A stretch of DNA of 64,000 bases. Source: Candidatus Sericytochromatia bacterium. GTDB lineage: Bacteria > Cyanobacteriota > Sericytochromatia > S15B-MN24 > VGJW01. Shown piece after piece: positions 5,263-63,928 of this stretch. The stretch lies in NCBI GenBank assembly GCA_035286125.1, contig JAYKIS010000003.1:6264-70263 (forward strand), in the 5' to 3' direction. Numbering within the stretch: the first letter of the stretch is position 1; every line of letters begins with the position of its first letter. The translations under genes and the position numbers were made by a program. Under the pieces are notes generated by a model. That model searched no databases. It was not told the DNA's origin and saw only the letters and a program-made list of their open reading frames with translations.

Positions 5263-8610
<3,348 letters not shown>

Positions 8611-50788: not shown

Positions 50789-51430
50789 ATGGACCGGCGT
50801 GGGGAAGTTGCGGCTCGCCTGGCTGGGGGCAAGCTTGTTGCGGTGCTGCGGACCGGCATGGCGGACGAGGCCATATGGCTTGGCGAATGCCTGCTCGATC
50901 TCGGTTGGCCGGCCATCGAGGTGACGTGGACGATTCCCGATCCGGGCCGGGTACTACGCCATCTGGCGGAACGTGCACTCCAGGGAGCGACCCTGGTAGG
51001 TGCAGGCACGATTCGCAACAGACCCGATGCCCTCGAAGCCATTGCCGCCGGCGCCCGGTACCTGGTCAGTCCGGCGCGGCCCGCGGGACTGGCCGATTTG
51101 GCACACCACCATGACCTGCCCGTCGTCCTCGGGGCCCTCACGCCCCACGAGATCCACGAGGCAATCGAGGAAGGGGCTGACTTCGTGAAGATTTTCCCCA
51201 TCCACCGCGTTGGCGGGGCCGGGTACCTTCGTGACGTTCGCGCGCCGTTCCCCGACCTGCGAGCCTTCGCATCCGGGGGCATCGAGCCAGGTGATGCCGG
51301 AGCCTATCTGCAGGCGGGAGCGACCGTCGTCAGCCTGGGCCAGACCCTGACACCCGGCGACACCCTCGGTTGTCGCAGTGCCGAACGCGTGGCTGCGTGT
51401 GTGGCAACGGCCCGCGCATCCCTCGCCTAG
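50789..51430 (+). CDS. eda: KDPG/KHG aldolase
   Basis: IEVT, GAGTI and KIFP motifs. Start at internal ATG 50789. Confidence 0.8.
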   Translation: MDRRGEVAARLAGGKLVAVLRTGMADEAIWLGECLLDLGWPAIEVTWTIPDPGRVLRHLAERALQGATLVGAGTIRNRPDALEAIAAGARYLVSPARPAGLADLAHHHDLPVVLGALTPHEIHEAIEEGADFVKIFPIHRVGGAGYLRDVRAPFPDLRAFASGGIEPGDAGAYLQAGATVVSLGQTLTPGDTLGCRSAERVAACVATARASLA

Positions 51431-52146
51431 CGTCCCCTCGGCCGCTCGGGATCCACCTCCAGGCGCAAGCCCTGCCCGCGAATCGACAGCAAATGCACGG
51501 GACGGGCGGGATCCGGCTCGACCAGCCGGCGCAGGCGCATCACGAAGTTGTCGATCGTGCGGGTGGCACCTCCGGAAGGAAATCCCCAGACCGCCTCCAT
51601 CAAGGCATCGCGACCCACGATCCGTCCCTTGGCCTCGAAAAGGTGGCGCAGCAGGCGCAATTCCAGAGAGGTCAACCGGACCTGTTCATCCCCACGCAAC
51701 ACCTCACCACGCGCGAAGTCCACCTCACATTGTCCGATGCGCAGCTTGCCAACGGCCTCGGCAGGGGCTTCCCGATGCCAATCCTGACGTCTGAGCAAGG
51801 ATGAAATCCGAGCCAGCAACTCCTCGAGGTTGAAGGGCTTGGTGACATAGTCATCCGCACCCACATGCAAGCCAAGGACCTTCTCTCGGTCGAAGCCTCG
51901 TGCCGTCAGCATCAGGATAGGCGTGCGGACACCCGATGCGCGCCAGCCCCGGCACAGGTCGATGCCGCTCAAGCCCGGAAGCATGACGTCCAGCACGATC
52001 AGATCCGGATGGTCCCCTCCCCGGATCAACTGGTCGGCAGCCTCGCCGTCCACGACGACGGAGACCTCATGGCCCTCCGTGACAAGGTTGTAGCGCAAAC
52101 CCTGGGCGATGTGCGCCTCATCCTCGACGATCAGGATTCTCGCCAT
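51427..52146 (-). CDS. OmpR/PhoB-family response regulator
   Basis: Receiver domain (D at LIVLDVMLPG) plus winged-helix output (RLLRHL..., VWG). Confidence 0.9.
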   Translation of the reverse strand: MARILIVEDEAHIAQGLRYNLVTEGHEVSVVVDGEAADQLIRGGDHPDLIVLDVMLPGLSGIDLCRGWRASGVRTPILMLTARGFDREKVLGLHVGADDYVTKPFNLEELLARISSLLRRQDWHREAPAEAVGKLRIGQCEVDFARGEVLRGDEQVRLTSLELRLLRHLFEAKGRIVGRDALMEAVWGFPSGGATRTIDNFVMRLRRLVEPDPARPVHLLSIRGQGLRLEVDPERPRGR

Positions 52147-53080
52147 CCATCCTCCCTGGCAGGCTCACCGTGAAGACGGCCCCGCGTCCGACACCCGGAC
52201 TCGCGGCCTCGATGTTTCCCCCCATGCCCACCACCATCGAGCGTGCGAGATAGAGGCCAAGGCCTATTCCCTTGCGCCGTCGCGTCATCTCGTCTCCCAA
52301 CCTGACGAATCGACGGAAAATCCGACGCTCGTTGCCCGGAGCCCAACCGATACCCTGATCCGCAATCACGAGGGCAATCTGGCCTGGAACCTTGCCCTCG
52401 CGCAGCGTCAGGACCACCTCAATCCGATCATCGGGGCTGTACTTGACCGCATTCTCAAGCAGGTTCGTACAGACCAGATCGAGCGCATCGGCATCGGCGC
52501 GGACCCAGGCTTCGCGATCCGGCAACCGGATGCAGGCATCCGCCAGTCGCAAACGCAGCCGCAGACGGCCGGTCAGGTCGGCAAGCAACTGGCGCATCGG
52601 CACATCTTCGAGTCGATAGGACCGCGAGCCGGCTTCAAGCCTGCCGGCCTCGAGGACGCGCTCGACCAGAATCTGCAAGCGGTCGCAGTCGTCGGCCATC
52701 ATGCCCAGGAACATCCGGGCCTCGTCGGCAGGAACCTCCTTGCGCCTCAAGGTATCGAGCGCGAGGCGCAGAGACGTCAGGGGACTGCGGAACTCGTGGG
52801 TAACGGCGTCCATCACGTTCTGCTGCAGCTGGTTGGCCCTGATCTGCTGGGCAAGAAACACGACGTACAGGACCAACCCGGCAATAACGGCGAGGAAGAG
52901 CAGGGTTCCGGCCACCAGCATCAGCGTCCGGCCCCACGAACCCGGCTCGAAGACCCGTTGCCAGGTGCCGGAGTCCTGCAAAAGCGCGAGGTTCCAAGTC
53001 GTGCCCAGCAGGATGACGATCAGGATCAGCAGGACCCCGAAGACAATCGGGGGCACGATGGACTGGCGCCACGCCCTCAT
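52118..53080 (-). CDS. Sensor histidine kinase with minimal (~25 aa) periplasmic loop
   Basis: Two N-terminal TM helices. H-box HEFRSPL, N/G boxes NLLENAVKY and DQGIG. No extracytoplasmic sensor domain. Confidence 0.9.
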   Translation of the reverse strand: MRAWRQSIVPPIVFGVLLILIVILLGTTWNLALLQDSGTWQRVFEPGSWGRTLMLVAGTLLFLAVIAGLVLYVVFLAQQIRANQLQQNVMDAVTHEFRSPLTSLRLALDTLRRKEVPADEARMFLGMMADDCDRLQILVERVLEAGRLEAGSRSYRLEDVPMRQLLADLTGRLRLRLRLADACIRLPDREAWVRADADALDLVCTNLLENAVKYSPDDRIEVVLTLREGKVPGQIALVIADQGIGWAPGNERRIFRRFVRLGDEMTRRRKGIGLGLYLARSMVVGMGGNIEAASPGVGRGAVFTVSLPGRMDGENPDRRG

Positions 53081-53099
53081 CGGTTGGCCCGGTCAGGCT

Positions 53100-55799
53100 T
53101 CAGGAGCCCGGCCGCCGCTTGCGCAGCGTATCCTCTGCTGACTCACGGTCGCGCCCCATGAGGCGCCCCCAGAGGTCAATCGGGCGCTCCTCGCCGGGGG
53201 GCGGCGGAGGAGTCAGGGGTGGCTGGACCTGCTGGGCATGCATGCTGGGCGTCGGCGCCTGTTGGACGGGCCTGGTGTCAGACAGGCCACGAGCCTGCCC
53301 CTTGAGCCAGTCAATCTCCTGCATCGTGCGCGACTCGGCCTGATGGACCGTCTGGTTGAGACTCTGCATCAACTGGAGCACCTGTTGCACACGCTGCGCG
53401 AGGCGTTGGTTCTCCTGCTGCAAGGTGATGAACTGAATCTGTTGCTGTTCCAGCATCGGCGTGGCCTGGTGGACGTGGCTCAGTTCGCGTTGGACCTGCT
53501 GCAACAACTGCTGACGATCCTCGCGCTGGTCGCGGATCATCTGGTCCATCCTGCCGCGCAACTCCTCGACCTCTCGGTCCCGCTGGGCAAGCAGTGCCCT
53601 GAGATCCGTGACTTCCTGACGCATCTGCCCCAGCTGTCCCTGGGGCACCAGGCGATCATGCACCTGGCGCAGGGATTCCCGCTGGTGAATCTCGGCCTGC
53701 AGAATCTGCTGCCCGACACCATCCAGATCCCGGCCCAGTTGCTCCATTCGGCCTGCCGCGTGGACCGAAAGCTCCTCGAGCCTGGTGGCGAACTGCTGGA
53801 CCATCCGCTCGATCTCCCGCCGTCCGGCGCGATCTTCTTCACGGGCATCGTCGACGTGCTGACGCCGCTGGGCGGCCTCATCCCCTAACTCGGCCCGTAG
53901 TTGGCGCCGCGCCTCGTCCACGGCCTTCCGCAACTCGGCAAGCTCGCCACGCAGCATCTCGAACTCGGCGCGACTGTGGTCGGCAGCCTGCCTGAGCGCC
54001 TGCCCGACGCCATCGACCCGGGTTCCCATGGCCTCGACACCGGCCTCCTGGTTGGCCATGCGGCGCGCCATCGCCTCAGCCTGCTCGCGAAGGCGCAGTT
54101 CGGCCTCGGTCGATTTGGCGTCCGTACCGCGCCAGCGCAGTTCCACGGCAGCAAGATCCTGATCGAAACGCCCAAGTCGGGCATGCTGCTCCGCCAAGTC
54201 GCGCTCGCGCGCCTCCTGAAGGTCCTGGAAACGTCCCAGCAGTTCCTTGAAGCCGGAACGCTGAGCCTCAGTCGCCTCATGGGTCTTGCGCTCCAGGTCT
54301 TCCACGTTGCCCAGCATCCGCTGGAAGAGGCGATCCAGGCCGCGCTCGAGTACGCGGTCCAATTCACCCCGCGTGACAAGAACCTCTTCAGGCCGGACCC
54401 CACGGCGAACGCCCTGTGGCACCGGGGGCTGCTCCCCCCGCGCACGCGCCTTGAGCTCCTCGGCAACGGGCCTTGGCGGTGGCGCCACCGACAAGTCCAG
54501 GTCCTGAAGATCGACCTCCGTCATATCCAGCCCTGCGGCCTCCGGCGTCCCCTGCGCCTCAGGCGAACCGACGGCAGCGCCTTCGTCATCCTGTACACGG
54601 GCGGCAGACGCAGCCGGAACCAGGCCCTCGAGGGGATCCCCCTCGTCACGAGCCAACGCATCCAGGTAATCCACGGCCCCCATGTCCGGAACCTGGGTCC
54701 GGCCATGCTTCCGACGGCGCTGCTTGCGACGCTGGCGACGGCCATGCGCCAGGAGAAAGCCACCGACGACCACCGCAAGACCAAGTGGAGCCGCCACCAT
54801 CCAACGTTCCCGGACCATCGCGAGGACATTGCGGGACGGGGCGGCCTGGACCAAGGCCGGCTCAGGAAGCGACAGACTGCGTTCCGCCCCCTCGGGCAAG
54901 GTATCGGCCTGGATGACCAGATAAAGGGGCAGAACCCCTACGGGTGCAACCTGAAATTGCTTGCCCGTCGCCTTGACTTCGGTCTGACCAGAGGGCATCA
55001 GGCCACGGAAGACGGCAGCCTGGTCACGGGACAGAAGGCCCGAATGGACAACCGCCTCGCCCTCGCGATCGAGAAGCACCGAGCGCGCACCGGCCGGTGT
55101 CGCCTCGATGGCCTTGGCCAGATCCATCCAGGGCACGACGGTCGCCACGACTCCCTGCTGGGCACCAGGCACCGCAATCAACAGGCCATCGGGGACAGGC
55201 ATGGTCAACGAACCGGAACGCGCCTCCTCCAGCCTGGCAACCTCGAGCCCGCTCTCCTGAGCCGGGATCGAGCGCCAGCCAGAACCGGACTTCTGGTAGA
55301 AGACCAAGGGCAGCGCGGCACCCGCCGGACCAACCACGCGGGGCATCTTGCCCTCGAACCCCGCAGCACCCAGGGCTGCGGCCTCCTGCAGACGCAGTTC
55401 GATGCGACGAACCCACGCATCGAGCTCCTCAGCGAGGTCTGCCGCAAGGGCACGCTCCTCGGGATCGGAAGCATCCCCTTCGGCCCGCGCCCCCTTGCCC
55501 GGCGACGCCAATTCCTGCTGACCGACAGCCGACCGCCCGGAGGCGGCCTCCGTCACGCTGGCACCACCCGAGAGATCAGGCGCGGAACCGGACGCGGGGG
55601 GGGCGGCCAGTTCCGCAGCAGGAGCAGCATCGGGCACCGTGAGGGTGGCCGGACGCTCCCCCGCGCGGACTGTCGCGCCCGGGACCGGACGCAGGGGCTC
55701 GGCCAAGACCGGCATCGCGACCATCGGCACCGTGCCCGCAAGGACGAGCCACCCCGCAGCCTTGCCGGCCCAGCACAGCCCAGACCATCCCGCTCGCAT
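53100..55799 (-). CDS. Membrane protein: signal peptide, ~340 aa periplasmic Cache-like domain, one TM helix, ~500 aa cytoplasmic coiled coil
   Basis: GGAGG RBS. Signal peptide (cleavage near VLA/EP). TM helix followed by RRQRRKQRRRKHGR. Long heptad-like Q/E/R/L-rich region. No enzymatic output domain. Confidence 0.55.
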   Translation of the reverse strand: MRAGWSGLCWAGKAAGWLVLAGTVPMVAMPVLAEPLRPVPGATVRAGERPATLTVPDAAPAAELAAPPASGSAPDLSGGASVTEAASGRSAVGQQELASPGKGARAEGDASDPEERALAADLAEELDAWVRRIELRLQEAAALGAAGFEGKMPRVVGPAGAALPLVFYQKSGSGWRSIPAQESGLEVARLEEARSGSLTMPVPDGLLIAVPGAQQGVVATVVPWMDLAKAIEATPAGARSVLLDREGEAVVHSGLLSRDQAAVFRGLMPSGQTEVKATGKQFQVAPVGVLPLYLVIQADTLPEGAERSLSLPEPALVQAAPSRNVLAMVRERWMVAAPLGLAVVVGGFLLAHGRRQRRKQRRRKHGRTQVPDMGAVDYLDALARDEGDPLEGLVPAASAARVQDDEGAAVGSPEAQGTPEAAGLDMTEVDLQDLDLSVAPPPRPVAEELKARARGEQPPVPQGVRRGVRPEEVLVTRGELDRVLERGLDRLFQRMLGNVEDLERKTHEATEAQRSGFKELLGRFQDLQEARERDLAEQHARLGRFDQDLAAVELRWRGTDAKSTEAELRLREQAEAMARRMANQEAGVEAMGTRVDGVGQALRQAADHSRAEFEMLRGELAELRKAVDEARRQLRAELGDEAAQRRQHVDDAREEDRAGRREIERMVQQFATRLEELSVHAAGRMEQLGRDLDGVGQQILQAEIHQRESLRQVHDRLVPQGQLGQMRQEVTDLRALLAQRDREVEELRGRMDQMIRDQREDRQQLLQQVQRELSHVHQATPMLEQQQIQFITLQQENQRLAQRVQQVLQLMQSLNQTVHQAESRTMQEIDWLKGQARGLSDTRPVQQAPTPSMHAQQVQPPLTPPPPPGEERPIDLWGRLMGRDRESAEDTLRKRRPGS

Positions 55800-55887
55800 G
55801 TCGAAACCTCCGGATATTCCAGACCATCATGCGGAGGCGGGTGCGAGCAGGCGGTATGCTCCGTCACCCCTATCGTACCCGCAGGTG

Positions 55888-56160
55888 TCAGGTTCCCCGA
55901 AGCGTCCCCAGGTAGAGCAGGCTCGTCAGTTTGCCCGATTCGGCCTCGGAGAGGGCCCAACGGAGGTCCTCCTCGCCAGCGTAGGCCTGGACGGTGCAGC
56001 GCCCGCCCAGCACGAAATCCAGCAACTGGCCCTGAGCGTCCTGATCCTCGATGCGGCCCGCGTGGAAGGCATCACGAATGGCGGCTACCTCGGGCGAGCA
56101 GGACAGTTGGTAGGCCAACTCCTCGAGCGGGATTCGGTGCGTACGGGTTACCAGAGGCAT
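55888..56160 (-). CDS. Small hypothetical protein (about 90 aa)
   Basis: Internal ATG start. Follows the secreted protein gene by 10 nt. No homology recognised. Confidence 0.35.
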   Translation of the reverse strand: MPLVTRTHRIPLEELAYQLSCSPEVAAIRDAFHAGRIEDQDAQGQLLDFVLGGRCTVQAYAGEEDLRWALSEAESGKLTSLLYLGTLRGT

Positions 56161-56170
56161 GACGTCTCCC

Positions 56171-56725
56171 TCACGGCCGACGGGTTGGCACTGCCCCGGC
56201 AAGGCTGGTGGCTGACGCCCGCCAATAGAGCGTACCCGCGTGGGTGGCGAGGCCATCGCGCAGGCTCGAAGGCGGCTCCTCGAGCAACTCCAGCGCAATA
56301 CGCGCACCCCGCAGATCAAGGGTCGGCATCCGGACGCCCCCGTGGCGGATCCGATCCCGCATGCCGAGCAGCATCTGGTTCAGCGTCTCACCGTGACGAA
56401 GTCCCGTGGCCTCGACGAGCAACCGGGCGAGGATGCCGATCGGCACTTGGTCCCCGACCTGCTCCGGCCACTCGACCTCGACGACTTGTTCGCGCAGGAT
56501 TCCGCGTGCGGGGTTTGCCCGAACCGCGACCACGAGGCCCGCGATGCGCCCCGCCCACATTCGGGAAGGTGCCATACCCGGCACGTCATGCATCGTGGCC
56601 AGGGGCAATGCCTTGAGATATCGGTCCAACAGCCCCACGTCCCTGCCGAGTCTCGCCTCGGCAGGTCGCGCCATCGCGGCAAGCACGAGGGCCACCGCCA
56701 GGACCGCCCGTTTCCGGACCCTCAA
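56171..56725 (-). CDS. Secreted hypothetical protein
   Basis: Probable TTG start in a TTGA overlap with the nth stop, GGGGG upstream. Signal peptide RVRKRAVLAVALVLAAMARPAEA. Confidence 0.4.
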   Translation of the reverse strand: MRVRKRAVLAVALVLAAMARPAEARLGRDVGLLDRYLKALPLATMHDVPGMAPSRMWAGRIAGLVVAVRANPARGILREQVVEVEWPEQVGDQVPIGILARLLVEATGLRHGETLNQMLLGMRDRIRHGGVRMPTLDLRGARIALELLEEPPSSLRDGLATHAGTLYWRASATSLAGAVPTRRP

Positions 56726-57372
56726 GGAACCGCCCCCGGACAGTCTGCTGCCAGCGAACACGACGCACAGCGCGGCTTTCGGGCCATACAGACCCTGCGC
56801 CCGTGCAGGATCAGCCAATGGTGCCCTTCGGCCCAGGATTCCCGCGGGAGTCGAAGCTCCAGATCCTCCTCGACGCCCAACACATCCCCGGCCCGCGACA
56901 AGCCAAGGCGCCGGGCCACCCGGAAGACATGGGTGTCGACGGCCAGTGCGGGCACACCGAAGGCCTGCGCCAGGACGACATTGGCGGTTTTCCTGCCCAC
57001 TCCCGGGAGGGCCTCCAGCGCCTCACGGGAATCCGGTACCTCGCCCTGGTGGTGTTCCACGAGCATGCCCGCCATCGCCACGAGGTTCCTGGACTTGGCG
57101 GGCCAGAGGCCGCAGGAGCGGATGAGGTCGGCCACCTCGGCGACGTCCGCCGAGGCGAGGGCGTGGGCATCGGGAAACCTTCGGAACAGGCCGGGCGTGA
57201 CCAGATTGACACGGACATCCGTGCACTGTGCCGAAAGAATCACGGCACACAGCAGTTCGTAGGGATTGCCGAAGACCAACTCCGTTCGCGCATCCGGGTA
57301 GGCGTCGGCCAAGGCCTGCCAGACACGCGCGACTCGCGCCCGTTCGTCGGGACGTGGACGCCAGCGCTTCAA
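56722..57372 (-). CDS. nth: Endonuclease III
   Basis: HhH-GPD motif (LPGVGRKTANVVL), catalytic D, and C-x6-C-x2-C-x5-C 4Fe-4S cluster. Probable TTG start overlapping the cinA TGA, giving 217 aa. Confidence 0.85.
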   Translation of the reverse strand: MKRWRPRPDERARVARVWQALADAYPDARTELVFGNPYELLCAVILSAQCTDVRVNLVTPGLFRRFPDAHALASADVAEVADLIRSCGLWPAKSRNLVAMAGMLVEHHQGEVPDSREALEALPGVGRKTANVVLAQAFGVPALAVDTHVFRVARRLGLSRAGDVLGVEEDLELRLPRESWAEGHHWLILHGRRVCMARKPRCASCSLAADCPGAVP

Positions 57373-58616
57373 GGCTGCGGCCCCATGGCCAGCCAGAGCG
57401 CGCGCAGGGCGGACCGTGCCGCCCGCAACTTGACAGCCGCTCGATCGACACCGGGGAAGCGATGGGTCCAACTGCCGCAAAATCCATCCGGACCTTCGAG
57501 GGCCAGATGAACCAACCCTGCTTCCTCGCCCGGGCGGCCACCCTCCGGCCCGGCCCATCCCGTCGTTGCCAGACCCCACGTCGCACCATGCAACGCGCGG
57601 GCCTGCCGTGCCATGGCCTGGCTGACCTCGGGGCTGACGTGGCCCGCACGCGCAACCAGTTCCGGGTCCAACCCCAGTTGCCGCGTCTTGTGACCCACGG
57701 AGTAGGCGACTGCCCCACCCAGGAACCAGGCGGAACTGCCGGGAACATCCGTCAACAGGCTGGCGAGAAGTCCACCCGTGACACTCTCGGCGGTGGCCAG
57801 GGTTTCGCCGCGCTGGCCAAGGCGCCTTGCCACGGCGTCCGCCAACGCATCGTCGCCCTCGCCATGCACCAGGTCCCCGAGTCGCAGCCGGACCCCGGCC
57901 ACGAGCGAGGCCAATCTCTCCTCCGCAACCAGGGGTTCTGCCGCCGCCACGGCTATGTGGACCTCGACCTCACCCTCGCCGGCATAGGTGCCGAGGCGAC
58001 ATGCCGGATCATCGAACAGCACGGCGATGCGATCGGCGACCTCCCGCTCACCGGCGCCGGAGGTGCGCAGGACGTGCAACGCGACGTGCTGGTCGGAACC
58101 GGAGCGCAAGCATGGCAGGACCTCACCAAGCCACATGCGCCTGAACTCCGCAGGCACACCGGGAAGCGCCCAGATTTCGAGTCCCGTCGGACCGACCAGA
58201 TGGAACCCCGGGGCCGTCCCTACCGGGTTCGGCAGCACCGCAGCCCCCCTGGGCAGGGTCGCAAGCCTCGTGTCGGCTTCCACAAGCTCGCGCCGCCTCA
58301 AGGCCACCTGACGCACCACCTGCGCGTGGGCTATGGGATGGAGCTCGAGCGGAACCCCTGCCCAGGCCGCCACACCCTCGCGCGTCAGGTCATCGGGCGT
58401 AGGCCCGAGGCCACCAGTCAGGACGACACCCCTGACGCCTGCGGCCGACTCCGCCTCCAGCGCGGCCCGAATGGCCAAAACGTCGTCGGAGACCACCCGC
58501 GCTGAACGCAACGGCAGGCCATGCACCGCGAGATCACGCCCCACCTGTACCAAGTGGCGATCGAGGACGCGCCCCGTCAGCAGTTCATCACCGATGGCGA
58601 CGAAGGCAAGGCTCAC
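57369..58616 (-). CDS. cinA: CinA: MoCF-like domain plus C-terminal NMN deamidase (PncC) domain
   Basis: MSLAFVAIGDELLTGRVLD start. Two-domain architecture. Confidence 0.9.
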   Translation of the reverse strand: MSLAFVAIGDELLTGRVLDRHLVQVGRDLAVHGLPLRSARVVSDDVLAIRAALEAESAAGVRGVVLTGGLGPTPDDLTREGVAAWAGVPLELHPIAHAQVVRQVALRRRELVEADTRLATLPRGAAVLPNPVGTAPGFHLVGPTGLEIWALPGVPAEFRRMWLGEVLPCLRSGSDQHVALHVLRTSGAGEREVADRIAVLFDDPACRLGTYAGEGEVEVHIAVAAAEPLVAEERLASLVAGVRLRLGDLVHGEGDDALADAVARRLGQRGETLATAESVTGGLLASLLTDVPGSSAWFLGGAVAYSVGHKTRQLGLDPELVARAGHVSPEVSQAMARQARALHGATWGLATTGWAGPEGGRPGEEAGLVHLALEGPDGFCGSWTHRFPGVDRAAVKLRAARSALRALWLAMGPQP

Positions 58617-59263
58617 GACAGGGTGCCGAAGGTCCTGTCCCCAGCGTCGCCGAGGCCCGGGACGATATAGCCACGCTCATTGAGGTGGCTGTCGATGCAG
58701 ACCGTGTAGATGGGCACGGAGGGATGATCGGACCGCAACCTCGAAACTCCTTCGGGGCTGGCGATGAGACAGAGGAACTTGAGTTGGGCGACGCCCCGCT
58801 GGCGAAAGAGGTCGATGGTCGCCGAGGCAGACCCACCCGTCGCCAGCATGGGATCGATGACCAGGACCAGCGTCTCCGGCGGGAAACGCTCGGGAAGCTT
58901 GGCGTAGTAGGTCACGGGCTCGAGGCGCTCCTCATCCCGATACAGGCCGATGTGCCGGACTTCGGCCTCAGGCAGCAACTCCATGGCTGGCTCGACCAGC
59001 GCCAGGCCGGCACGAAGGATGGGTGCAATCACGATGGGCCTGTCGCCAATCGTCTTGCCCTTCGCGATGGCCAGCGGTGTCTCCACCTCGATGTCGGTCG
59101 TGGGCAGGTCGCGCGTGGCCTCGAGGATGAGAAACTTGGCCAGTTCCCGAGCCCGTTGACGGAATCGGGGGACCGAAGTGCCTCGGGCCCGAAGTTCGGC
59201 GACGGCCGTGTGCACGAGCGGATGATCCAACTCGTGGACCATGGCATCGCGGGAACGTGTCAT
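58613..59263 (-). CDS. upp: Uracil phosphoribosyltransferase
   Basis: PRPP-binding motif VLVIDPMLATGGS. GGAGGAG RBS before ATG 59263. Confidence 0.9.
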   Translation of the reverse strand: MTRSRDAMVHELDHPLVHTAVAELRARGTSVPRFRQRARELAKFLILEATRDLPTTDIEVETPLAIAKGKTIGDRPIVIAPILRAGLALVEPAMELLPEAEVRHIGLYRDEERLEPVTYYAKLPERFPPETLVLVIDPMLATGGSASATIDLFRQRGVAQLKFLCLIASPEGVSRLRSDHPSVPIYTVCIDSHLNERGYIVPGLGDAGDRTFGTLS

Positions 59264-59856
59264 GCACTCCTCCAGATGGCACGCGTCTGCCAGATCATCG
59301 CCACACCGGACCAGACGGTCAGGAAGACGGCCAGGCCATACAGGCCCATCGCCCACGGGACGAGCGGCGGCCAAGGAACGAGAAGCGCGGAAATCGAACA
59401 CATCTGCGCAATGGCCTTGGCCTTGCCTGACCAGGCGGCGGGCCGGATACCCTGGCCCATATCGGCCAGCACGATCCGCAAACCTGTCGCCACGAACTCG
59501 CGCGCCAGCACCACGCTGACACTCCAGCCCGGCAAGGTGCCCGCCTCGACGAAAGCCACGAGGCAAGCGGCAACCAGGACCTTGTCGGCCAGAGGATCGA
59601 GCCAGGCCCCCATCGCCGAGGTCTGCCCCATGCGTCGCGCGAGCAGTCCGTCCATCCAGTCCGACGCCGCAGCCAGGCTGAAGAGGCCAAGCGGCACCCA
59701 AGAGCGCCAATCCGAAAGGTCATGGGGTGCCCACGCCATAGACGCCACTATCGGCGGAACCAGCACGAACCGGAACAACGTGACCCAAGTTGCCACGGTC
59801 AGGGGAGAGACGGGCCTGCCCGGCGGGGCGTCAGAGGGCGACGCCATGGAAGTCAT
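59260..59856 (-). CDS. pgsA: CDP-diacylglycerol--glycerol-3-phosphate 3-phosphatidyltransferase
   Basis: CDP-alcohol phosphatidyltransferase motif DWMDGLLAR...G...DPLADK. Confidence 0.8.
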   Translation of the reverse strand: MTSMASPSDAPPGRPVSPLTVATWVTLFRFVLVPPIVASMAWAPHDLSDWRSWVPLGLFSLAAASDWMDGLLARRMGQTSAMGAWLDPLADKVLVAACLVAFVEAGTLPGWSVSVVLAREFVATGLRIVLADMGQGIRPAAWSGKAKAIAQMCSISALLVPWPPLVPWAMGLYGLAVFLTVWSGVAMIWQTRAIWRSA

Positions 59857-61147
59857 AGTGCGCAGCCTCGGTCACACGCACCGGAACGATGCTGCCGATC
59901 TCGAGGTCGTGCTCGGCACGGACAAAGGTAAGGCCATCGATCTCGGGGGCATCCCGATAGGTCCGTCCTATCCAGCGGCCACGCCGCTCGTCGAGTCCCT
60001 CGATCAACACGTCCAGCGTACGACCGACGAGCGCTTGATGGTGCTCCAGCGAGATGGCCTGCTGTACCTCCATGATGCGCCGCTGACGCGCCACGCGCGT
60101 CCGCTTCGGGACGACGGGCTTCATCTTCGCTCCGGGCGTTCCCTTTTCGGGGGAATAAGTGAAGGCACCCACATGATCGAGGCGGGCCTGCCGGACGAAA
60201 TCGAGCACGTGTTCGGCATGCTCCTCGGTTTCGCCGGGGAAGCCGGTGATGAAGGTGGTACGCAAGGCCATGTCAGGCACGATGGAGCGCATCCGTGCGA
60301 CCAGTTCCCCCGGGGGCTCGTGCCGGGGCCGCTTCATCGCCTTGAGCATGTCGGGATGCGTGTGCTGCAACGGAACATCCAGATAGGGCAGGACCTTGGG
60401 CAGGTCCCGGATGGCCTCGAGCAACTCGTTGGTCATGTAGTTGGGATAGGCATACAGGATACGGATCCAGGCAAGGCCATCGAGGGCATCGAGATCCGCA
60501 AGCAGTTGGGGCAGACGGAACTTGCCCGTCTCCTTCTGGCCATATCGGGTCGTGTCCTCGGCGATCAGCACGATCTCGCGGACTCCCTGGTCCACCAGAC
60601 GACGAGCCTCTGCCAGGATGGAAGGCTTCTCGCGCGACACGTACCGCCCCCTGAACTGCGGGATGATGCAGAACGTGCAAACGTGATCACAGCCCTCGGC
60701 TATCTTGAGATAGGCCGATGGCCCGAGGCCTGTCAGGCGGCGCGGCAGGTCGACCAGGACATTGCGGGCATCCGGCACGGGCGTCACGCCCTGGAATCGC
60801 TCGCCCTCGTCCACCCGACGCACGACATCGACGATGCCCCCGAAATCCCCCGTGCCGATGACGGCCGAAATCTCCGGCATGGTCTCGAGCAACTCTTCCT
60901 GATGCCGTTGGGCGAGGCAGCCCGCCACCACCACCCGTCGACCGTCCTGGCCCAGCTCGAGGATGGTGCGCACGGATTCCTGCGTCGCGTCACCCACGAA
61001 GGAACACGTATTGACGATGACGACGTCTGCGGCACGCTCGTCCCCGACGACCTCGTAGCCAGCCTCGGTCAACAGACCGAGCATGTTCTCGGAATCCACC
61101 GTGTTCTTGGAACAGCCGAGGCTGACCATGCCAACGCGACGCGTCAT
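59831..61147 (-). CDS. rimO: Ribosomal protein S12 methylthiotransferase (radical SAM MTTase with TRAM domain)
   Basis: N-terminal MTTase Cys triad, radical SAM CDHVCTFC, C-terminal TRAM. About 438 aa. Confidence 0.85.
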   Translation of the reverse strand: MTRRVGMVSLGCSKNTVDSENMLGLLTEAGYEVVGDERAADVVIVNTCSFVGDATQESVRTILELGQDGRRVVVAGCLAQRHQEELLETMPEISAVIGTGDFGGIVDVVRRVDEGERFQGVTPVPDARNVLVDLPRRLTGLGPSAYLKIAEGCDHVCTFCIIPQFRGRYVSREKPSILAEARRLVDQGVREIVLIAEDTTRYGQKETGKFRLPQLLADLDALDGLAWIRILYAYPNYMTNELLEAIRDLPKVLPYLDVPLQHTHPDMLKAMKRPRHEPPGELVARMRSIVPDMALRTTFITGFPGETEEHAEHVLDFVRQARLDHVGAFTYSPEKGTPGAKMKPVVPKRTRVARQRRIMEVQQAISLEHHQALVGRTLDVLIEGLDERRGRWIGRTYRDAPEIDGLTFVRAEHDLEIGSIVPVRVTEAAHYDFHGVAL

Positions 61148-61156
61148 CGACTTGCC

Positions 61157-62371
61157 TCAGCGACCGAGGCCGGGGGCCAGAACCACATCATCCGGAACCG
61201 GTGCGGCACCGGACAACAGGCTGTACAGGACGGAACCGGCCTGGTCCGTCAAACCACCCGAGGGAAGCAGATTCCAGGCGACGACCTTGCTCTTGCCGGG
61301 GGAAACGGCCCACAACTCGGAACCGTCCCCGTTGACCGTCAGGTTCGTTGGCTGGAAGCTGCCGCTCGGGGACAATGCCGTGAAATTGCCGGTCGAGGCA
61401 CCCGGGGCAATGGCATAGATGCCGAACGAGTCGGGATAAGCGAGGTACCGCCATCCCAGAGCATCCACGGCGATGCCTCCGACACCACCCGTGACGCCCG
61501 ACAGGAGCACCACGGTCTCGTTGACGACATTCAGGACACCCGGCTGCCACGAGGACAGGTCGCGGACCGACATGTAGGAGCCGTTGCCCGCATCCACGGA
61601 GTAGGCGAAGGCCGACGTGCCCGCGGCATCCTCCCAGATGACGACACGGGAGGGCTGCTGAGGATCCCGGCCTACGGCAGCGTCGAGAAGCTGGCCACTC
61701 GTCTGGATGTTGCCACTGTCGACGTTGTAGGCCAGCAAGCGGGCGACCTTGACCGTATTCGTCAGGGCCGGCTTGCGGGACAGGACCATCACCGCATGCT
61801 TGAAGGCACCGTCCGTGCCCAAGGGCGCCTGGCGGAAATTGCGCACGGCAACGGAGACGGGTTCGAAATCCTCAGGCAGGGAAACGGAACGATCCACCTG
61901 CCGCGTCCCGACATTGATGCGACGCAGCCTGCGCTCCTCGGGGCTGACGACATAGACGAACGCGCCGTCGCTGGTGATGGCAAGATCCGTCGGATTGACA
62001 CCAGCCTGGATGGTCGCCTCGATGTTGTTGCTGCGCCGATTGATGATGGCGACGGACCCGCTGACGCGGCACAGGACGAAGAGCAACTCGCGGTTCTTCT
62101 CGTTCGTCGTCCCGGCGGGCGCCACGACCATACGCGACGGATAGCCCGGCACCGAGATGGGATCCGAAACCGGCCGGCGAAGAACCGTATCGATGACGGC
62201 AACCTCGTTCGAGCTGCCCGTCGAGACGTAGGCACGCAACGTCGGAGCCCCGCCGGACGTCGGACCCGCAGCGTCCGCACCACGGAAGCAGCCCGCGAGC
62301 AACGCCACGAGGAGGCCGAGGACGCGGCCTCGGGCAGATACGGTCAGTCGGCGCAAGCAGGCCACCTCCAC
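61157..62371 (-). CDS. Lipoprotein with YVTN-type beta-propeller repeats
   Basis: Signal peptide plus lipobox LLAGC. Repeats such as AYVSTGSSNEVAVIDT and VYVVSPEERRLRRINV. Paralogue of the gene at 1..1010. Confidence 0.6.
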   Translation of the reverse strand: MEVACLRRLTVSARGRVLGLLVALLAGCFRGADAAGPTSGGAPTLRAYVSTGSSNEVAVIDTVLRRPVSDPISVPGYPSRMVVAPAGTTNEKNRELLFVLCRVSGSVAIINRRSNNIEATIQAGVNPTDLAITSDGAFVYVVSPEERRLRRINVGTRQVDRSVSLPEDFEPVSVAVRNFRQAPLGTDGAFKHAVMVLSRKPALTNTVKVARLLAYNVDSGNIQTSGQLLDAAVGRDPQQPSRVVIWEDAAGTSAFAYSVDAGNGSYMSVRDLSSWQPGVLNVVNETVVLLSGVTGGVGGIAVDALGWRYLAYPDSFGIYAIAPGASTGNFTALSPSGSFQPTNLTVNGDGSELWAVSPGKSKVVAWNLLPSGGLTDQAGSVLYSLLSGAAPVPDDVVLAPGLGR

Positions 62372-62380
62372 GCGCCCATC

Positions 62381-63928
62381 CTAGCAGACGGTAGCGCGGG
62401 TCGTCAGGGTCTCGCGCCCATCGCGCGCCAAATCACCGGAGGCCAGCATCTGGCCCAGGACACCCAGCACGGCGGGATCGAAATGGCCTGAGCCCTGCAT
62501 CTCTGCGAGCGCCTCGAGCGGCGGCAGCGCAGGCCGCCACGCCTTGGGCGTGGTCATCCCGTCCCAGGCCTCGGCCACGGCCAGGATACGTGCGAGCATC
62601 GGGATGGCCTCTCCCGCCAGCCCGCCGGGGTAGCCACTGCCGTCGAAACGTTCGTGGTGATGACGGATGGCCGCGATGGCCGAGGGATACCGGCTTACAG
62701 GGGCCAGCAAGCGCGCGCCGACCTCGGGGTGAACCTCCACGACGGCCCGCTCCTCGGGTGTCAGGGTACCCGGCTTGTGCAGCACGGTCGCCGGCACGGC
62801 AACCTTGCCCAGGTCGTGGAAACGCGCCGCAAGCCCCAAGGCCTCGAGGTCAGGCGCATCAAGGGACAAGCGGCGTCCCATTTCGGCGGTAAGGTGCTCG
62901 AGATAGCGGGCGTGGCCGGCCTCAAACCCATCCATCGCCTCGAGGGTCCCGACCAGCTCCCCGATAGCAGCCATGTAAGCTTCCTGACGCCGTTCCTCGA
63001 GGACGACGCGCCCGAGGGCCGAGGTCAGGCGCCCGGCCACCGTCCGGAACAGGCGACGTTCGCGGGCAACGAGGCGCTTGCCCTCACGCACGGACACCAG
63101 CACCACGCCCAACCACTGGCCTTCGTGCCGAAGGGGCAGGGCCCAGGCCTGGCCGATGCCGTAGCCTTGCGACTCTTCCGCGACACCGAACGGCGCCTCG
63201 ACGAGCTGGGGAGTGTCGGCAGCTGCGACCTGCGCTGGCCACGACGCGCCTTCCGGCACGATCCGAACGCCCTCTCCGCCGGATCGGGCACGCAAGACAA
63301 GGCCGTCACCATCACGCAGGAAGAGGAGCGCCGGCAAACCGCCCATGGCCTCGCGCAGGACGGCCAGACCCTGCTCAAGCCAGGCATCCAGGCTGCCCTG
63401 AACCCGATCCAGTTTCTCGAGCAGCAGCATGTCCCGGTGCGTCTGCTGGTAGCTCTCGTGCCAGACCAGCGACAAGGTCAGCGTGGCCTGACGGGACAGC
63501 CACTCGAGTCCGGACAGGACGATGAGCTTGTCCTGGGGCGAGAAGGGGCCGTGACGGACGTGGTCCTGGAACGAACCCGTCAAGGCCAACGCGATGTTTT
63601 CGGCCTGCGTCAAGGAAATACCGGCAGCCAGCCACGTGAGCGCCTCGGCCCGTAGTGCCTGATAGAAGACGATGGCCTCCGCAGGCTCCCCGGCATCACC
63701 GGCACCGGCCTCGAGACGGAGCAGGAGCAGGCCACGGGCCTGATCGACGAGCGCATCGGGGGCGTCCTCGGCCGTCACCGGCGCCCCACAGAGGCGAAGG
63801 GCCTGACGAAGCCGCTGCACGGCCGGCGCCTGGCCCTCGGCCAACCACGCGGCCCAGCGTCCCCGGTCCAGCACCGCCGACTGGCGGATGGGCTGGCGAG
63901 GCACGCTGCCGGGCTCGGGTGCCGCCAT
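62381..63928 (-). CDS. HD-GYP domain c-di-GMP phosphodiesterase with N-terminal GAF-like domain
   Basis: HDLGK...HHERFDGSGYPGG motifs. Confidence 0.8.
   Translation of the reverse strand: MAAPEPGSVPRQPIRQSAVLDRGRWAAWLAEGQAPAVQRLRQALRLCGAPVTAEDAPDALVDQARGLLLLRLEAGAGDAGEPAEAIVFYQALRAEALTWLAAGISLTQAENIALALTGSFQDHVRHGPFSPQDKLIVLSGLEWLSRQATLTLSLVWHESYQQTHRDMLLLEKLDRVQGSLDAWLEQGLAVLREAMGGLPALLFLRDGDGLVLRARSGGEGVRIVPEGASWPAQVAAADTPQLVEAPFGVAEESQGYGIGQAWALPLRHEGQWLGVVLVSVREGKRLVARERRLFRTVAGRLTSALGRVVLEERRQEAYMAAIGELVGTLEAMDGFEAGHARYLEHLTAEMGRRLSLDAPDLEALGLAARFHDLGKVAVPATVLHKPGTLTPEERAVVEVHPEVGARLLAPVSRYPSAIAAIRHHHERFDGSGYPGGLAGEAIPMLARILAVAEAWDGMTTPKAWRPALPPLEALAEMQGSGHFDPAVLGVLGQMLASGDLARDGRETLTTRATVC

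Follow-up and report, generated by a model that had tools for sequence, protein, structure and literature searches.

How does a histidine kinase that carries no sensor domain of its own learn about conditions outside the membrane? The question is raised by a locus in a Candidatus Sericytochromatia bacterium (NCBI GenBank assembly GCA_035286125.1, contig JAYKIS010000003.1), lying within a stretch of 64,000 nucleotides (nt; contig positions 6,264 to 70,263, forward strand) that we refer to as the window. Three minus-strand open reading frames (ORFs) fill positions 51427-55799 of the window, which has a GC content of about 67%. They encode an 899-amino-acid (aa) membrane protein, a histidine kinase and an OmpR/PhoB-type response regulator. 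An earlier note on this DNA had read the large protein as an accessory sensor that signals to the kinase. Our analyses lead us to favour, tentatively, a Sericytochromatia-specific three-component signalling module in which the 899-aa protein serves as accessory sensor of the kinase, and they revise several of its parts.

The kinase has the architecture of an intramembrane-sensing kinase

As the earlier note had reported, the large gene lies upstream of the kinase gene on the same strand, 19 nt away. The regulator gene begins inside the kinase gene, with an overlap of 29 nt, and its ATG is preceded at five bases by its own ribosome-binding site, GGGAGG. Pfam searches assigned Response_reg (6e-24) and Trans_reg_C (1.7e-17) to the regulator, in agreement with the OmpR type proposed for it. 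In the kinase they assigned HisKA (aa 87-151, E 1.7e-11) and HATPase_c (aa 196-308, E 1.1e-20). No HAMP, PAS, GAF or other sensor domain was found in the kinase by Pfam at E<=1, and the transmembrane (TM) layout likewise supports the description of a kinase without a sensor domain. Among NCBIfam models, the kinase fell with generic PhoR/WalK-like and the regulator with PhoB/OmpR/MtrA-like proteins; neither reached an equivalog cut-off.

The two TM helices attributed to the kinase are present as hydrophobic segments at about aa 8-33 and 52-78, but the loop that connects them (QDSGTWQRVFEPGSWGRT) measures about 18 aa rather than the 25 aa given before. HisKA begins about 10 residues past the second helix (TM2), and the phospho-accepting His95 lies about 17 residues past it. 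We counted a kinase as intramembrane-sensing if its input region was made up of two TM helices alone, joined outside the cytoplasm by a loop of less than about 25 aa, and if HAMP, PAS and GAF domains were absent between TM2 and the dimerization and histidine phosphotransfer (DHp) domain. In both its membrane layout and its domain content, the kinase is an intramembrane-sensing histidine kinase by architecture. A further mark of the class, a signal received from an accessory membrane protein or transporter, is suggested here by gene adjacency. The public (PGAP) name of the kinase, "HAMP domain-containing sensor histidine kinase", is a generic one; a HAMP domain is undetectable, and the residues between TM2 and His95 are too few for one.

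The two-TM, short-loop layout is also present in 13 aligned kinase homologues. Hundreds of kinases of 300-340 aa, many of them from Deltaproteobacteria and Myxococcota, align over 95% of the kinase length with 39-43% identity. Common to these homologues are invariant glycines, together with a tryptophan, within the TM helices, and the motif R-x-N-x-x-Q next to the membrane. Judged from these alignments, the short-kinase architecture is not peculiar to Sericytochromatia.

The 899-aa protein combines a predicted sensor fold with long cytoplasmic helices

Hydropathy of the 899-aa protein agrees with the signal peptide (its cleavage is a prediction) and the single TM helix that the earlier note had described. 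The segment between them had been taken for a periplasmic domain of about 340 aa. It consists instead of a low-complexity spacer of about 80 aa, which is poorly conserved (29-55% identity even between close orthologues), and a folded domain of about 210 aa (aa ~112-322). The TM helix, in which P338 is invariant throughout the family, is followed by the basic run RRQRRKQRRRK and, about 22 residues past the membrane, by VDYLDAL.

The cytoplasmic part, previously read as a coiled coil of about 500 aa, is made up of a disordered linker of about 110 aa in all (to about aa 476), three helices of about 107, 130 and 118 aa (about 365 aa in total) and a proline-rich tail of 60 aa. The linker is much longer and strongly acidic in remote members of the family. 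The helical region has a hydrophobic period of 3.55-3.6, and helix 3 alone is significant at 3.5 (0 of 2000 shuffles matched the observed value). "Amphipathic long helices, partly heptad" therefore seems a safer label than "500-aa coiled coil". The tail ends in a peptide of the form P-I-D-L-W-G-R-L-x-G-R…R-K-R-R, in which I874, D875, L876, W877, R879, L880, G882, R883, R893, R895 and R896 are invariant.

For the 899-aa protein and its six relatives, Pfam and NCBIfam returned no family above threshold. A DUF6203 match (20.7 bits against a cutoff of 26.7) was set aside, as it spans only the TM helix and the basic run, and matches to SMC, Prominin and 4HB_MCP were dismissed as coiled-coil noise (SMC_prok_B scored 14 bits against a cutoff of 567). 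The earlier note had named a cytoskeletal or division protein of the Scy/FilP type as the identity that would speak against its reading; only noise-level matches to such families (Scy/FilP, DivIVA, EzrA, SMC) appeared. Its statement that the protein lacks an output domain holds as well, since neither an enzymatic nor a methyl-accepting chemotaxis protein (MCP) domain was found in the seven family members at E<=1.

We modelled the protein with AlphaFold2 (AF2) and compared the models with the PDB using Foldseek. The model of the periplasmic part, built from four sequences, had a mean predicted local distance difference test (pLDDT) score of 67; the whole-protein model, built from seven sequences, reached 77-91 over aa 120-300. 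All 47 best matches of the first model were double-Cache (dCache) ligand-binding domains, headed by CtaA (6pxy, E 3.4e-6) and followed by PctA/B/C, Tlp3, Mlp37, DctB, KinD and three "HK1S" sensor domains. E-values ranged from 3e-6 to 1e-3, with template modelling scores of about 0.5, about 220 aligned columns and 8-18% identity. The second model again matched dCache domains, including the Cache-containing alpha2-delta calcium-channel subunits. Across the two independent models, nearly every match was a ligand-binding domain from a chemoreceptor or a sensor kinase. At model level, the periplasmic domain has a double-Cache fold, with a long N-terminal helix and two alpha/beta PDC modules.

The Cache-like character that had been suggested for this domain is thus upheld by AF2 and Foldseek as a fold but has no counterpart at the sequence level. 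None of the seven family members matched the Pfam Cache clan (dCache_1/2/3, sCache) at E<=1, and a profile of the periplasmic alignment searched against all PDB chain sequences gave no Cache protein and a single marginal, irrelevant match (E 0.027). There is no sign of the PctA-type Y-R-W-Y-D amino-acid motif among the invariant periplasmic residues. The helical cytoplasmic part had no Foldseek match. That a dCache fold can escape every sequence model implies that sensor censuses in candidate lineages under-count such proteins.

The protein shares its predicted fold, the location of that fold outside the membrane and the TM helix after it with the dCache proteins PctA/B/C, CtaA, Tlp3, Mlp37, DctB and KinD. 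Unlike them, it has a signal-peptide-like N-terminus and an 80-aa disordered spacer in place of TM1, and it carries no kinase, MCP, cyclase or phosphatase output in the same polypeptide. One could read it as a degenerate dCache chemoreceptor with a highly diverged signalling hairpin, as its best periplasmic structural matches are chemoreceptor domains (including the full-length MCP model 9a69_B) and its cytoplasmic part is made of long helices. We regard this reading as effectively refuted: MCPsignal and HAMP are absent from the seven members at E<=1, the helices are three and do not form a two-helix hairpin, there is one TM helix rather than two, the membrane is followed by a disordered linker of 110 to >300 aa, and no che genes adjoin the large gene in the window or at the loci inspected.

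The family is confined to Sericytochromatia and is most constrained in its cytoplasmic part

Searches of 1.8-5.8 billion sequences confined the 899-aa family to Sericytochromatia, with about seven distinct proteins. A word-indexed search of 5.8 billion proteins gave four clusters at 100, 90, 73 and 60% identity. The identical protein is recorded in a Candidatus Sericytochromatia metagenome-assembled genome, and the 90%-identical copy belongs to Candidatus Tanganyikabacteria from Lake Tanganyika. A scan of one genome per species (185,579 species) found three loci, all from Sericytochromatia or Tanganyikabacteria. An exhaustive hidden Markov model (HMM) search with the periplasmic profile against 1.84 billion representatives gave six matches, four of which are true members, and added the remote members P0125-P0127 (986-1078 aa, E 2e-16 to 2e-13). 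The matches P0128 and P0129 were treated as spurious: they are tandem-repeat proteins of different architecture with many weak partial matches. Locus L009 supplied one more member. A word-indexed search based on the cytoplasmic alignment, probably swamped by low-complexity candidates, came back empty, missing even the known members, and is uninformative on distribution.

Our family sequences were the orthologues P0001-P0004 and the remote members P0125-P0127 (about 28% identity); layout and short motifs are common to all family members. We rejected the possibility that the large gene is an ORF artefact of high-GC DNA, as orthologues at 90, 73, 60 and about 28% identity keep the architecture. 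Literature searches on Sericytochromatia or Tanganyikabacteria with coiled-coil proteins, and on dCache domains with scaffolds, found nothing on the family, and no family model covers it. The family is undescribed, as the earlier note had said of the putative partner.

Relative to P0004, the 60% orthologue, identity is 45% in the periplasmic domain, 81, 74 and 84% in helices 1 to 3, 81% in the juxtamembrane motif and 83% in the C-terminal peptide. In comparisons with the remote members, it is 50-63% for the C-terminal peptide, 38-50% for the juxtamembrane motif, 34-39% for helix 1 and 22-27% for the periplasmic domain. The helical region is the best-conserved large part, and the best-kept short motifs are the membrane-proximal VDYLDAL and the C-terminus. 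These comparisons indicate that the cytoplasmic part is under stronger constraint than the periplasmic domain. Such constraint fits specific protein-protein contacts and is unlike the expectation for a passive spacer.

This pattern also bears on a different reading, in which the 899-aa protein is a membrane-anchored scaffold or landmark like FimV/HubP or PodJ that assembles cytoplasmic partners at a membrane site. PodJ recruits the histidine kinase PleC; the kinase-regulator pair could similarly be a client of the scaffold, or it could merely regulate scaffold expression. The 899-aa protein is laid out like FimV/HubP and PodJ, with a single TM helix behind the periplasmic domain, then a long disordered stretch with many acidic residues, prolines and helices, and a conserved C-terminal docking element. 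In keeping with a scaffold, its most conserved parts are the helices and the C-terminal peptide. A disordered linker ranging from about 70 to >300 aa, a proline-rich segment and the lack of an enzymatic output domain fit as well, and so do the separability of the gene from the kinase-regulator pair at one locus (L016, below) and the ability of the kinase family to work elsewhere without the large protein. However, we detected no homology to FimV/HubP or PodJ, and their LysM, TPR and FimV C-terminal domains are absent. No sequence or fold match connects the protein to cytoskeletal, division or landmark families. Known dCache folds are small-molecule sensors, and the periplasmic module here has such a sensor fold, unlike the anchoring, peptidoglycan-binding module (such as LysM) of the FimV/HubP type. 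The tight spacing with the kinase gene in most lineages is a further point against this reading. We consider this reading possible but doubtful.

Both roles could also reside in one protein. The family may represent a new type of transmembrane receptor, a type I, single-pass dCache sensor whose output, instead of an enzyme, is a long, conserved helical scaffold with a C-terminal docking peptide, although we think this rather unlikely. Such a receptor would couple ligand binding to the kinase, at the membrane and through VDYLDAL, and to further cytoplasmic partners, a dual coupling that we hold to be similarly uncertain. If it exists, this receptor-scaffold hybrid would be confined to the non-photosynthetic sister lineage of Cyanobacteria.

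The large gene is strongly but not obligatorily linked to the kinase-regulator pair

The large gene lies directly upstream of the kinase-regulator pair, on the same strand, in seven of the eight distinct loci, with gaps of 19-137 nt. Direct adjacency was found in the window (19 nt), L001, L003, L004, L006/L008, L009 (39 nt), L011 and L018 (46 nt). It persists even where identity has fallen to about 28% between the large proteins and to 45-50% between the kinases, and in all contexts seen the large protein and this kinase clade were found together. In the window, L001, L003, L004 and L006/L008, CinA and Nth come first, then the genes for a secreted protein (about 190 aa) and for a protein of 90 aa, and then the large gene with kinase and regulator; a convergent Eda aldolase is next, and SpoU methylase, HolA, UppS and CdaA come after it. 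The loci of remote members, L009 and L018, keep the large gene, kinase, regulator, Eda and SpoU. L011 carries an insertion, in which an opposite-strand PMT glycosyltransferase and a 90-aa gene part the large gene from the small genes upstream of it; this leaves the large gene joined to kinase and regulator.

The two small genes between nth and the large gene are conserved across Sericytochromatia, with 30-47% identity at depth. We left them out of the module: in L011 the opposite-strand genes cut both off, and both travel with nth.

A conserved non-coding element precedes the large gene. The 88-nt spacer ahead of the gene is 89% identical in close relatives and holds a perfectly conserved block of 29 nt. 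The core of the element occurs a single time in the window, against an expectation of 0.04 matches. Ten loci each have one copy, always 68-75 nt ahead of the large-gene ATG (for example L001 2110-2129, L003 2236-2255 and L011 3575-3594). Spacing variants are present in L016 (~5925-5960) and L018 (~245-270), and the element has been retained even between members with a protein identity of only about 28%. Because the element persists whatever lies upstream, it appears to mark the regulatory region of the large gene; no such element is evident ahead of the kinase. It is a probable promoter or regulator-binding site at the start of a putative transcript that would run from the large gene through kinase and regulator. 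Its GT(G)AC-like repeats are spaced by about 11 nt, which might suit the binding of an OmpR-family regulator. Together with the ribosome-binding site, the element suggests that transcription starts directly upstream of the large gene. A scan of 51000-57800 found no promoter-like sites, terminator-like sites at chance level and none of the latter between the large gene and the kinase.

Several observations weigh against the module. At L016 (9272-13678), which holds the most divergent member, 4.6 kb with three opposite-strand genes, for an 83-aa ORF, an SSF transporter and a raffinose synthase, split the large gene from the kinase-regulator pair, and the kinase there is a clear orthologue. Because of these opposite-strand genes, co-transcription is not obligatory. 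The whole region, from RimO, Upp, CinA, Nth and the two small genes to CdaA, is syntenic across genomes, and synteny reaches >10 kb on either side in all loci. Since the entire neighbourhood is syntenic, adjacency carries less weight than in shuffled genomes and may reflect inherited gene order. Kinase relatives with 39-42% identity elsewhere keep the TM helices and juxtamembrane residues without a large partner, and none was found beside the kinase-regulator pair at the three loci from other phyla that we inspected (L013, L014 and L015). Because relatives in Deltaproteobacteria and Myxococcota retain these TM features without the partner, the kinase architecture does not need the 899-aa protein. 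On the side of the large protein, the dCache assignment comes from models of four to seven sequences, Gly and Pro account for most of the invariant periplasmic residues, among which candidates for conserved ligand binding are not obvious, and the helices are far better kept than the putative sensor domain (74-84% against 45% in P0004). The last contrast is odd for a periplasmic sensor and hints at another cytoplasmic function. Interaction of the large protein with the kinase, and co-transcription of their genes, are predictions from gene context.

A possible further point against the module is an 8-bp GC-rich hairpin (GGCGGCCC-CACAU-GGGCCGCC), followed by UUCAGGGUUUUCG, in the stretch of L011 that separates the large gene from the kinase (6886-6908). 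By eye it resembled a terminator. It was not among the sites called by the scan, its folding z-score of only -1.37 is not statistically significant, and we left it unused as evidence. The called kinase starts of L011 (~6959) and L016 (~13826) seem to lie too far downstream, as in-frame ATGs upstream of them restore the conserved N-terminus of other orthologues, M-x-R-x-x-x-S-I-G-P-P-I. The L011 kinase probably starts upstream of its called start, which would leave a gap of about 95 nt to the large gene.

The long-range synteny, the split at L016 and the full-length kinase relatives with conserved TM helices but without this neighbour would also be compatible with no functional link at all. The genes would then be neighbours through conserved gene order, the kinase would sense a membrane-intrinsic or cytoplasmic cue alone, and the large protein would signal to, or bind, something else. 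We judge this improbable, given that the genes share a strand with gaps of 19-46 nt in most lineages, that the window shows no terminator-like site between them and that the conserved element stands before the large gene with none evident before the kinase. The pairing is also complementary, with a sensor fold that lacks an output beside a kinase that lacks an input. The linkage between the large gene and the kinase-regulator pair is strong yet breakable. The conservation of synteny on which the earlier note had wished to check its proposal is therefore of mixed value: the three-gene order is kept in all but one of the distinct loci, but L016 is split and the RimO-SpoU neighbourhood as a whole is equally kept.

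A proposed receptor-kinase-regulator module and its relation to known systems

In the module that we favour, the 899-aa protein would be a type I single-pass receptor whose double-Cache domain binds a small ligand in the periplasm. Having no enzymatic output, the receptor would inform the adjacent intramembrane-type kinase, which could not sense the periplasm alone and would phosphorylate the OmpR-type regulator. The most likely contact would be lateral, in and just below the membrane, with the Pro/Gly face of the receptor TM helix and VDYLDAL acting on the two TM helices of the kinase and on its membrane-abutting DHp helix. We place the contact here rather than at the distal helices because the kinase DHp starts at the membrane. 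The earlier proposal that the signal passes through the coiled coil found no support; the TM helix and VDYLDAL are better placed for a kinase core that begins at the membrane. The long helices and the C-terminal IDLWGRL…RKRR peptide would probably serve in receptor oligomerisation, in the recruitment of other partners, or in both. The element lying about 70 nt ahead of the large gene is a candidate for the site at which the regulator would act on its own expression.

Accessory membrane proteins of intramembrane-type kinases are well established, with LiaF, VraT, GraX and QseG as examples (PMC3543457, PMC3128592, 10.1101/2025.01.23.634444, PMC12691602). BceAB-BceSR is a further precedent for an accessory-controlled kinase. 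The Firmicutes systems LiaF-LiaS-LiaR, VraT-VraS-VraR and GraX-GraS-GraR share with the Sericytochromatia locus a sensor-less two-TM kinase with a short loop and a response regulator, and their accessory gene, whose product controls the kinase, is clustered with the pair as the putative accessory gene is here. There are differences, too. LiaS and VraS are of the HisKA_3/NarL type, the Sericytochromatia pair of the HisKA/OmpR type. GraX is a cytosolic protein, and LiaF and VraT cross the membrane several times and carry a DUF2154-type domain; a Cache domain and a 365-aa helical tail are missing from all three. The 899-aa protein has no sequence relationship to LiaF, VraT or GraX, and its interaction with the kinase is predicted from the genes.

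In QseG-QseE-QseF, kinase activity is set by an extracytoplasmic protein that is distinct from the kinase and encoded alongside it and the regulator (PMC6075780, PMC12691602). The Sericytochromatia locus resembles this system, and the LpqB and YycH/YycI systems, in encoding a separate, putative accessory protein with the two-component genes. In LpqB-MtrB-MtrA and YycH/YycI-WalK, extracytoplasmic accessory proteins modulate the kinase. QseE, MtrB and WalK, however, own periplasmic domains and are bound there by the accessory protein. The Sericytochromatia kinase has a loop of only about 18 aa, and for this reason any contact would have to take place inside the membrane or beneath it.

That an intramembrane-type kinase should have an accessory sensor is a known concept, and only this partner is new. 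If the link is real, the logic of accessory sensor and intramembrane kinase, known mainly from envelope stress in Firmicutes, reaches a different phylum, a pair of the OmpR type and a partner with a Cache fold, which would provide true ligand sensing instead of stress sensing. It would also offer a first functional handle on a Sericytochromatia-only family, in an uncultured lineage that is used to reason about the origin of Cyanobacteria. The significance is bounded by the familiarity of the concept and by the uncultured state of the organism.

Feature coordinates and other observations

Table 1. Features of the locus, in window coordinates
Feature	Positions	Strand	Basis or remarks
899-aa membrane protein gene	53100-55799	-	ATG start, ORF and translation; Sericytochromatia-specific family
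Signal peptide or membrane anchor, aa 1-33	55701-55799	-	Hydropathy core aa 14-33, ends VLA|EP; cleavage inferred
Ala/Pro/Gly/Ser low-complexity periplasmic spacer, aa 34-111	55467-55700	-	Composition; pLDDT ~30, predicted disordered
Double-Cache-like (tandem PDC) periplasmic domain, aa ~112-322	54834-55466	-	AF2 models and Foldseek against PDB
Single TM helix, aa 333-353	54741-54803	-	Hydropathy; conserved Pro-Leu-Gly…Gly-Gly small-residue pattern
Basic stop-transfer run and juxtamembrane V-D-Y-L-D-x-L (aa 376-382)	54624-54740	-	Invariant alignment columns
Disordered cytoplasmic linker, aa 393-464	54408-54623	-	pLDDT below 50; length variable
Three long amphipathic helices, aa 477-583, 588-717, 723-840	53280-54407	-	AF2 secondary structure, hydrophobic periodicity
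Proline-rich stretch aa 841-869 and C-terminal peptide aa 870-899	53103-53279	-	Alignment
Histidine kinase gene, 320 aa	52118-53080	-	ATG start; HisKA (His95) and HATPase_c
OmpR/PhoB-type response regulator gene, 239 aa	51427-52146	-	ATG start; Response_reg and Trans_reg_C
Conserved non-coding element GGGTA-N(4-9)-GTGAYGG and TACCGC	55847-55882	-	68-75 nt upstream of large-gene ATG
90-aa cytoplasmic protein gene	55888-56160	-	No Pfam match; conserved
~190-aa secreted or membrane-anchored protein gene (listed as 215-aa ORF; start probably further in)	56171-56818	-	No Pfam match

Three long ORFs on the plus strand run antisense in the window: 52109-53161 (350 aa), 53901-56162 (753 aa) and 58685-62491 (1268 aa). 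They are Arg/Pro/Gly-rich shadow ORFs of high-GC DNA and not genes. Elsewhere in the window, a 515-aa protein is encoded at 62381-63928 on the minus strand; C-terminal HD-GYP-like motifs (HDLGK…HHERFDGSGYP), spotted by eye in its translation, suggest that it is probably a cyclic di-GMP phosphodiesterase with an N-terminal sensory region.

At the three metagenomic loci outside Sericytochromatia (L013 3487-6657, L014 3467-6607 and L015 156-3519), one of which lies on a contig annotated as Deltaproteobacteria, the kinase-regulator pair, which belongs to the same family as that of the window (39-42% identity), adjoins a divergent DUF1329 gene in every case. PAC2 and acyl-CoA dehydrogenase genes follow downstream in all three, and a DUF1302 gene is also near the pair in two. 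The pairing of DUF1329 with the kinase-regulator genes may be a conserved regulatory association.

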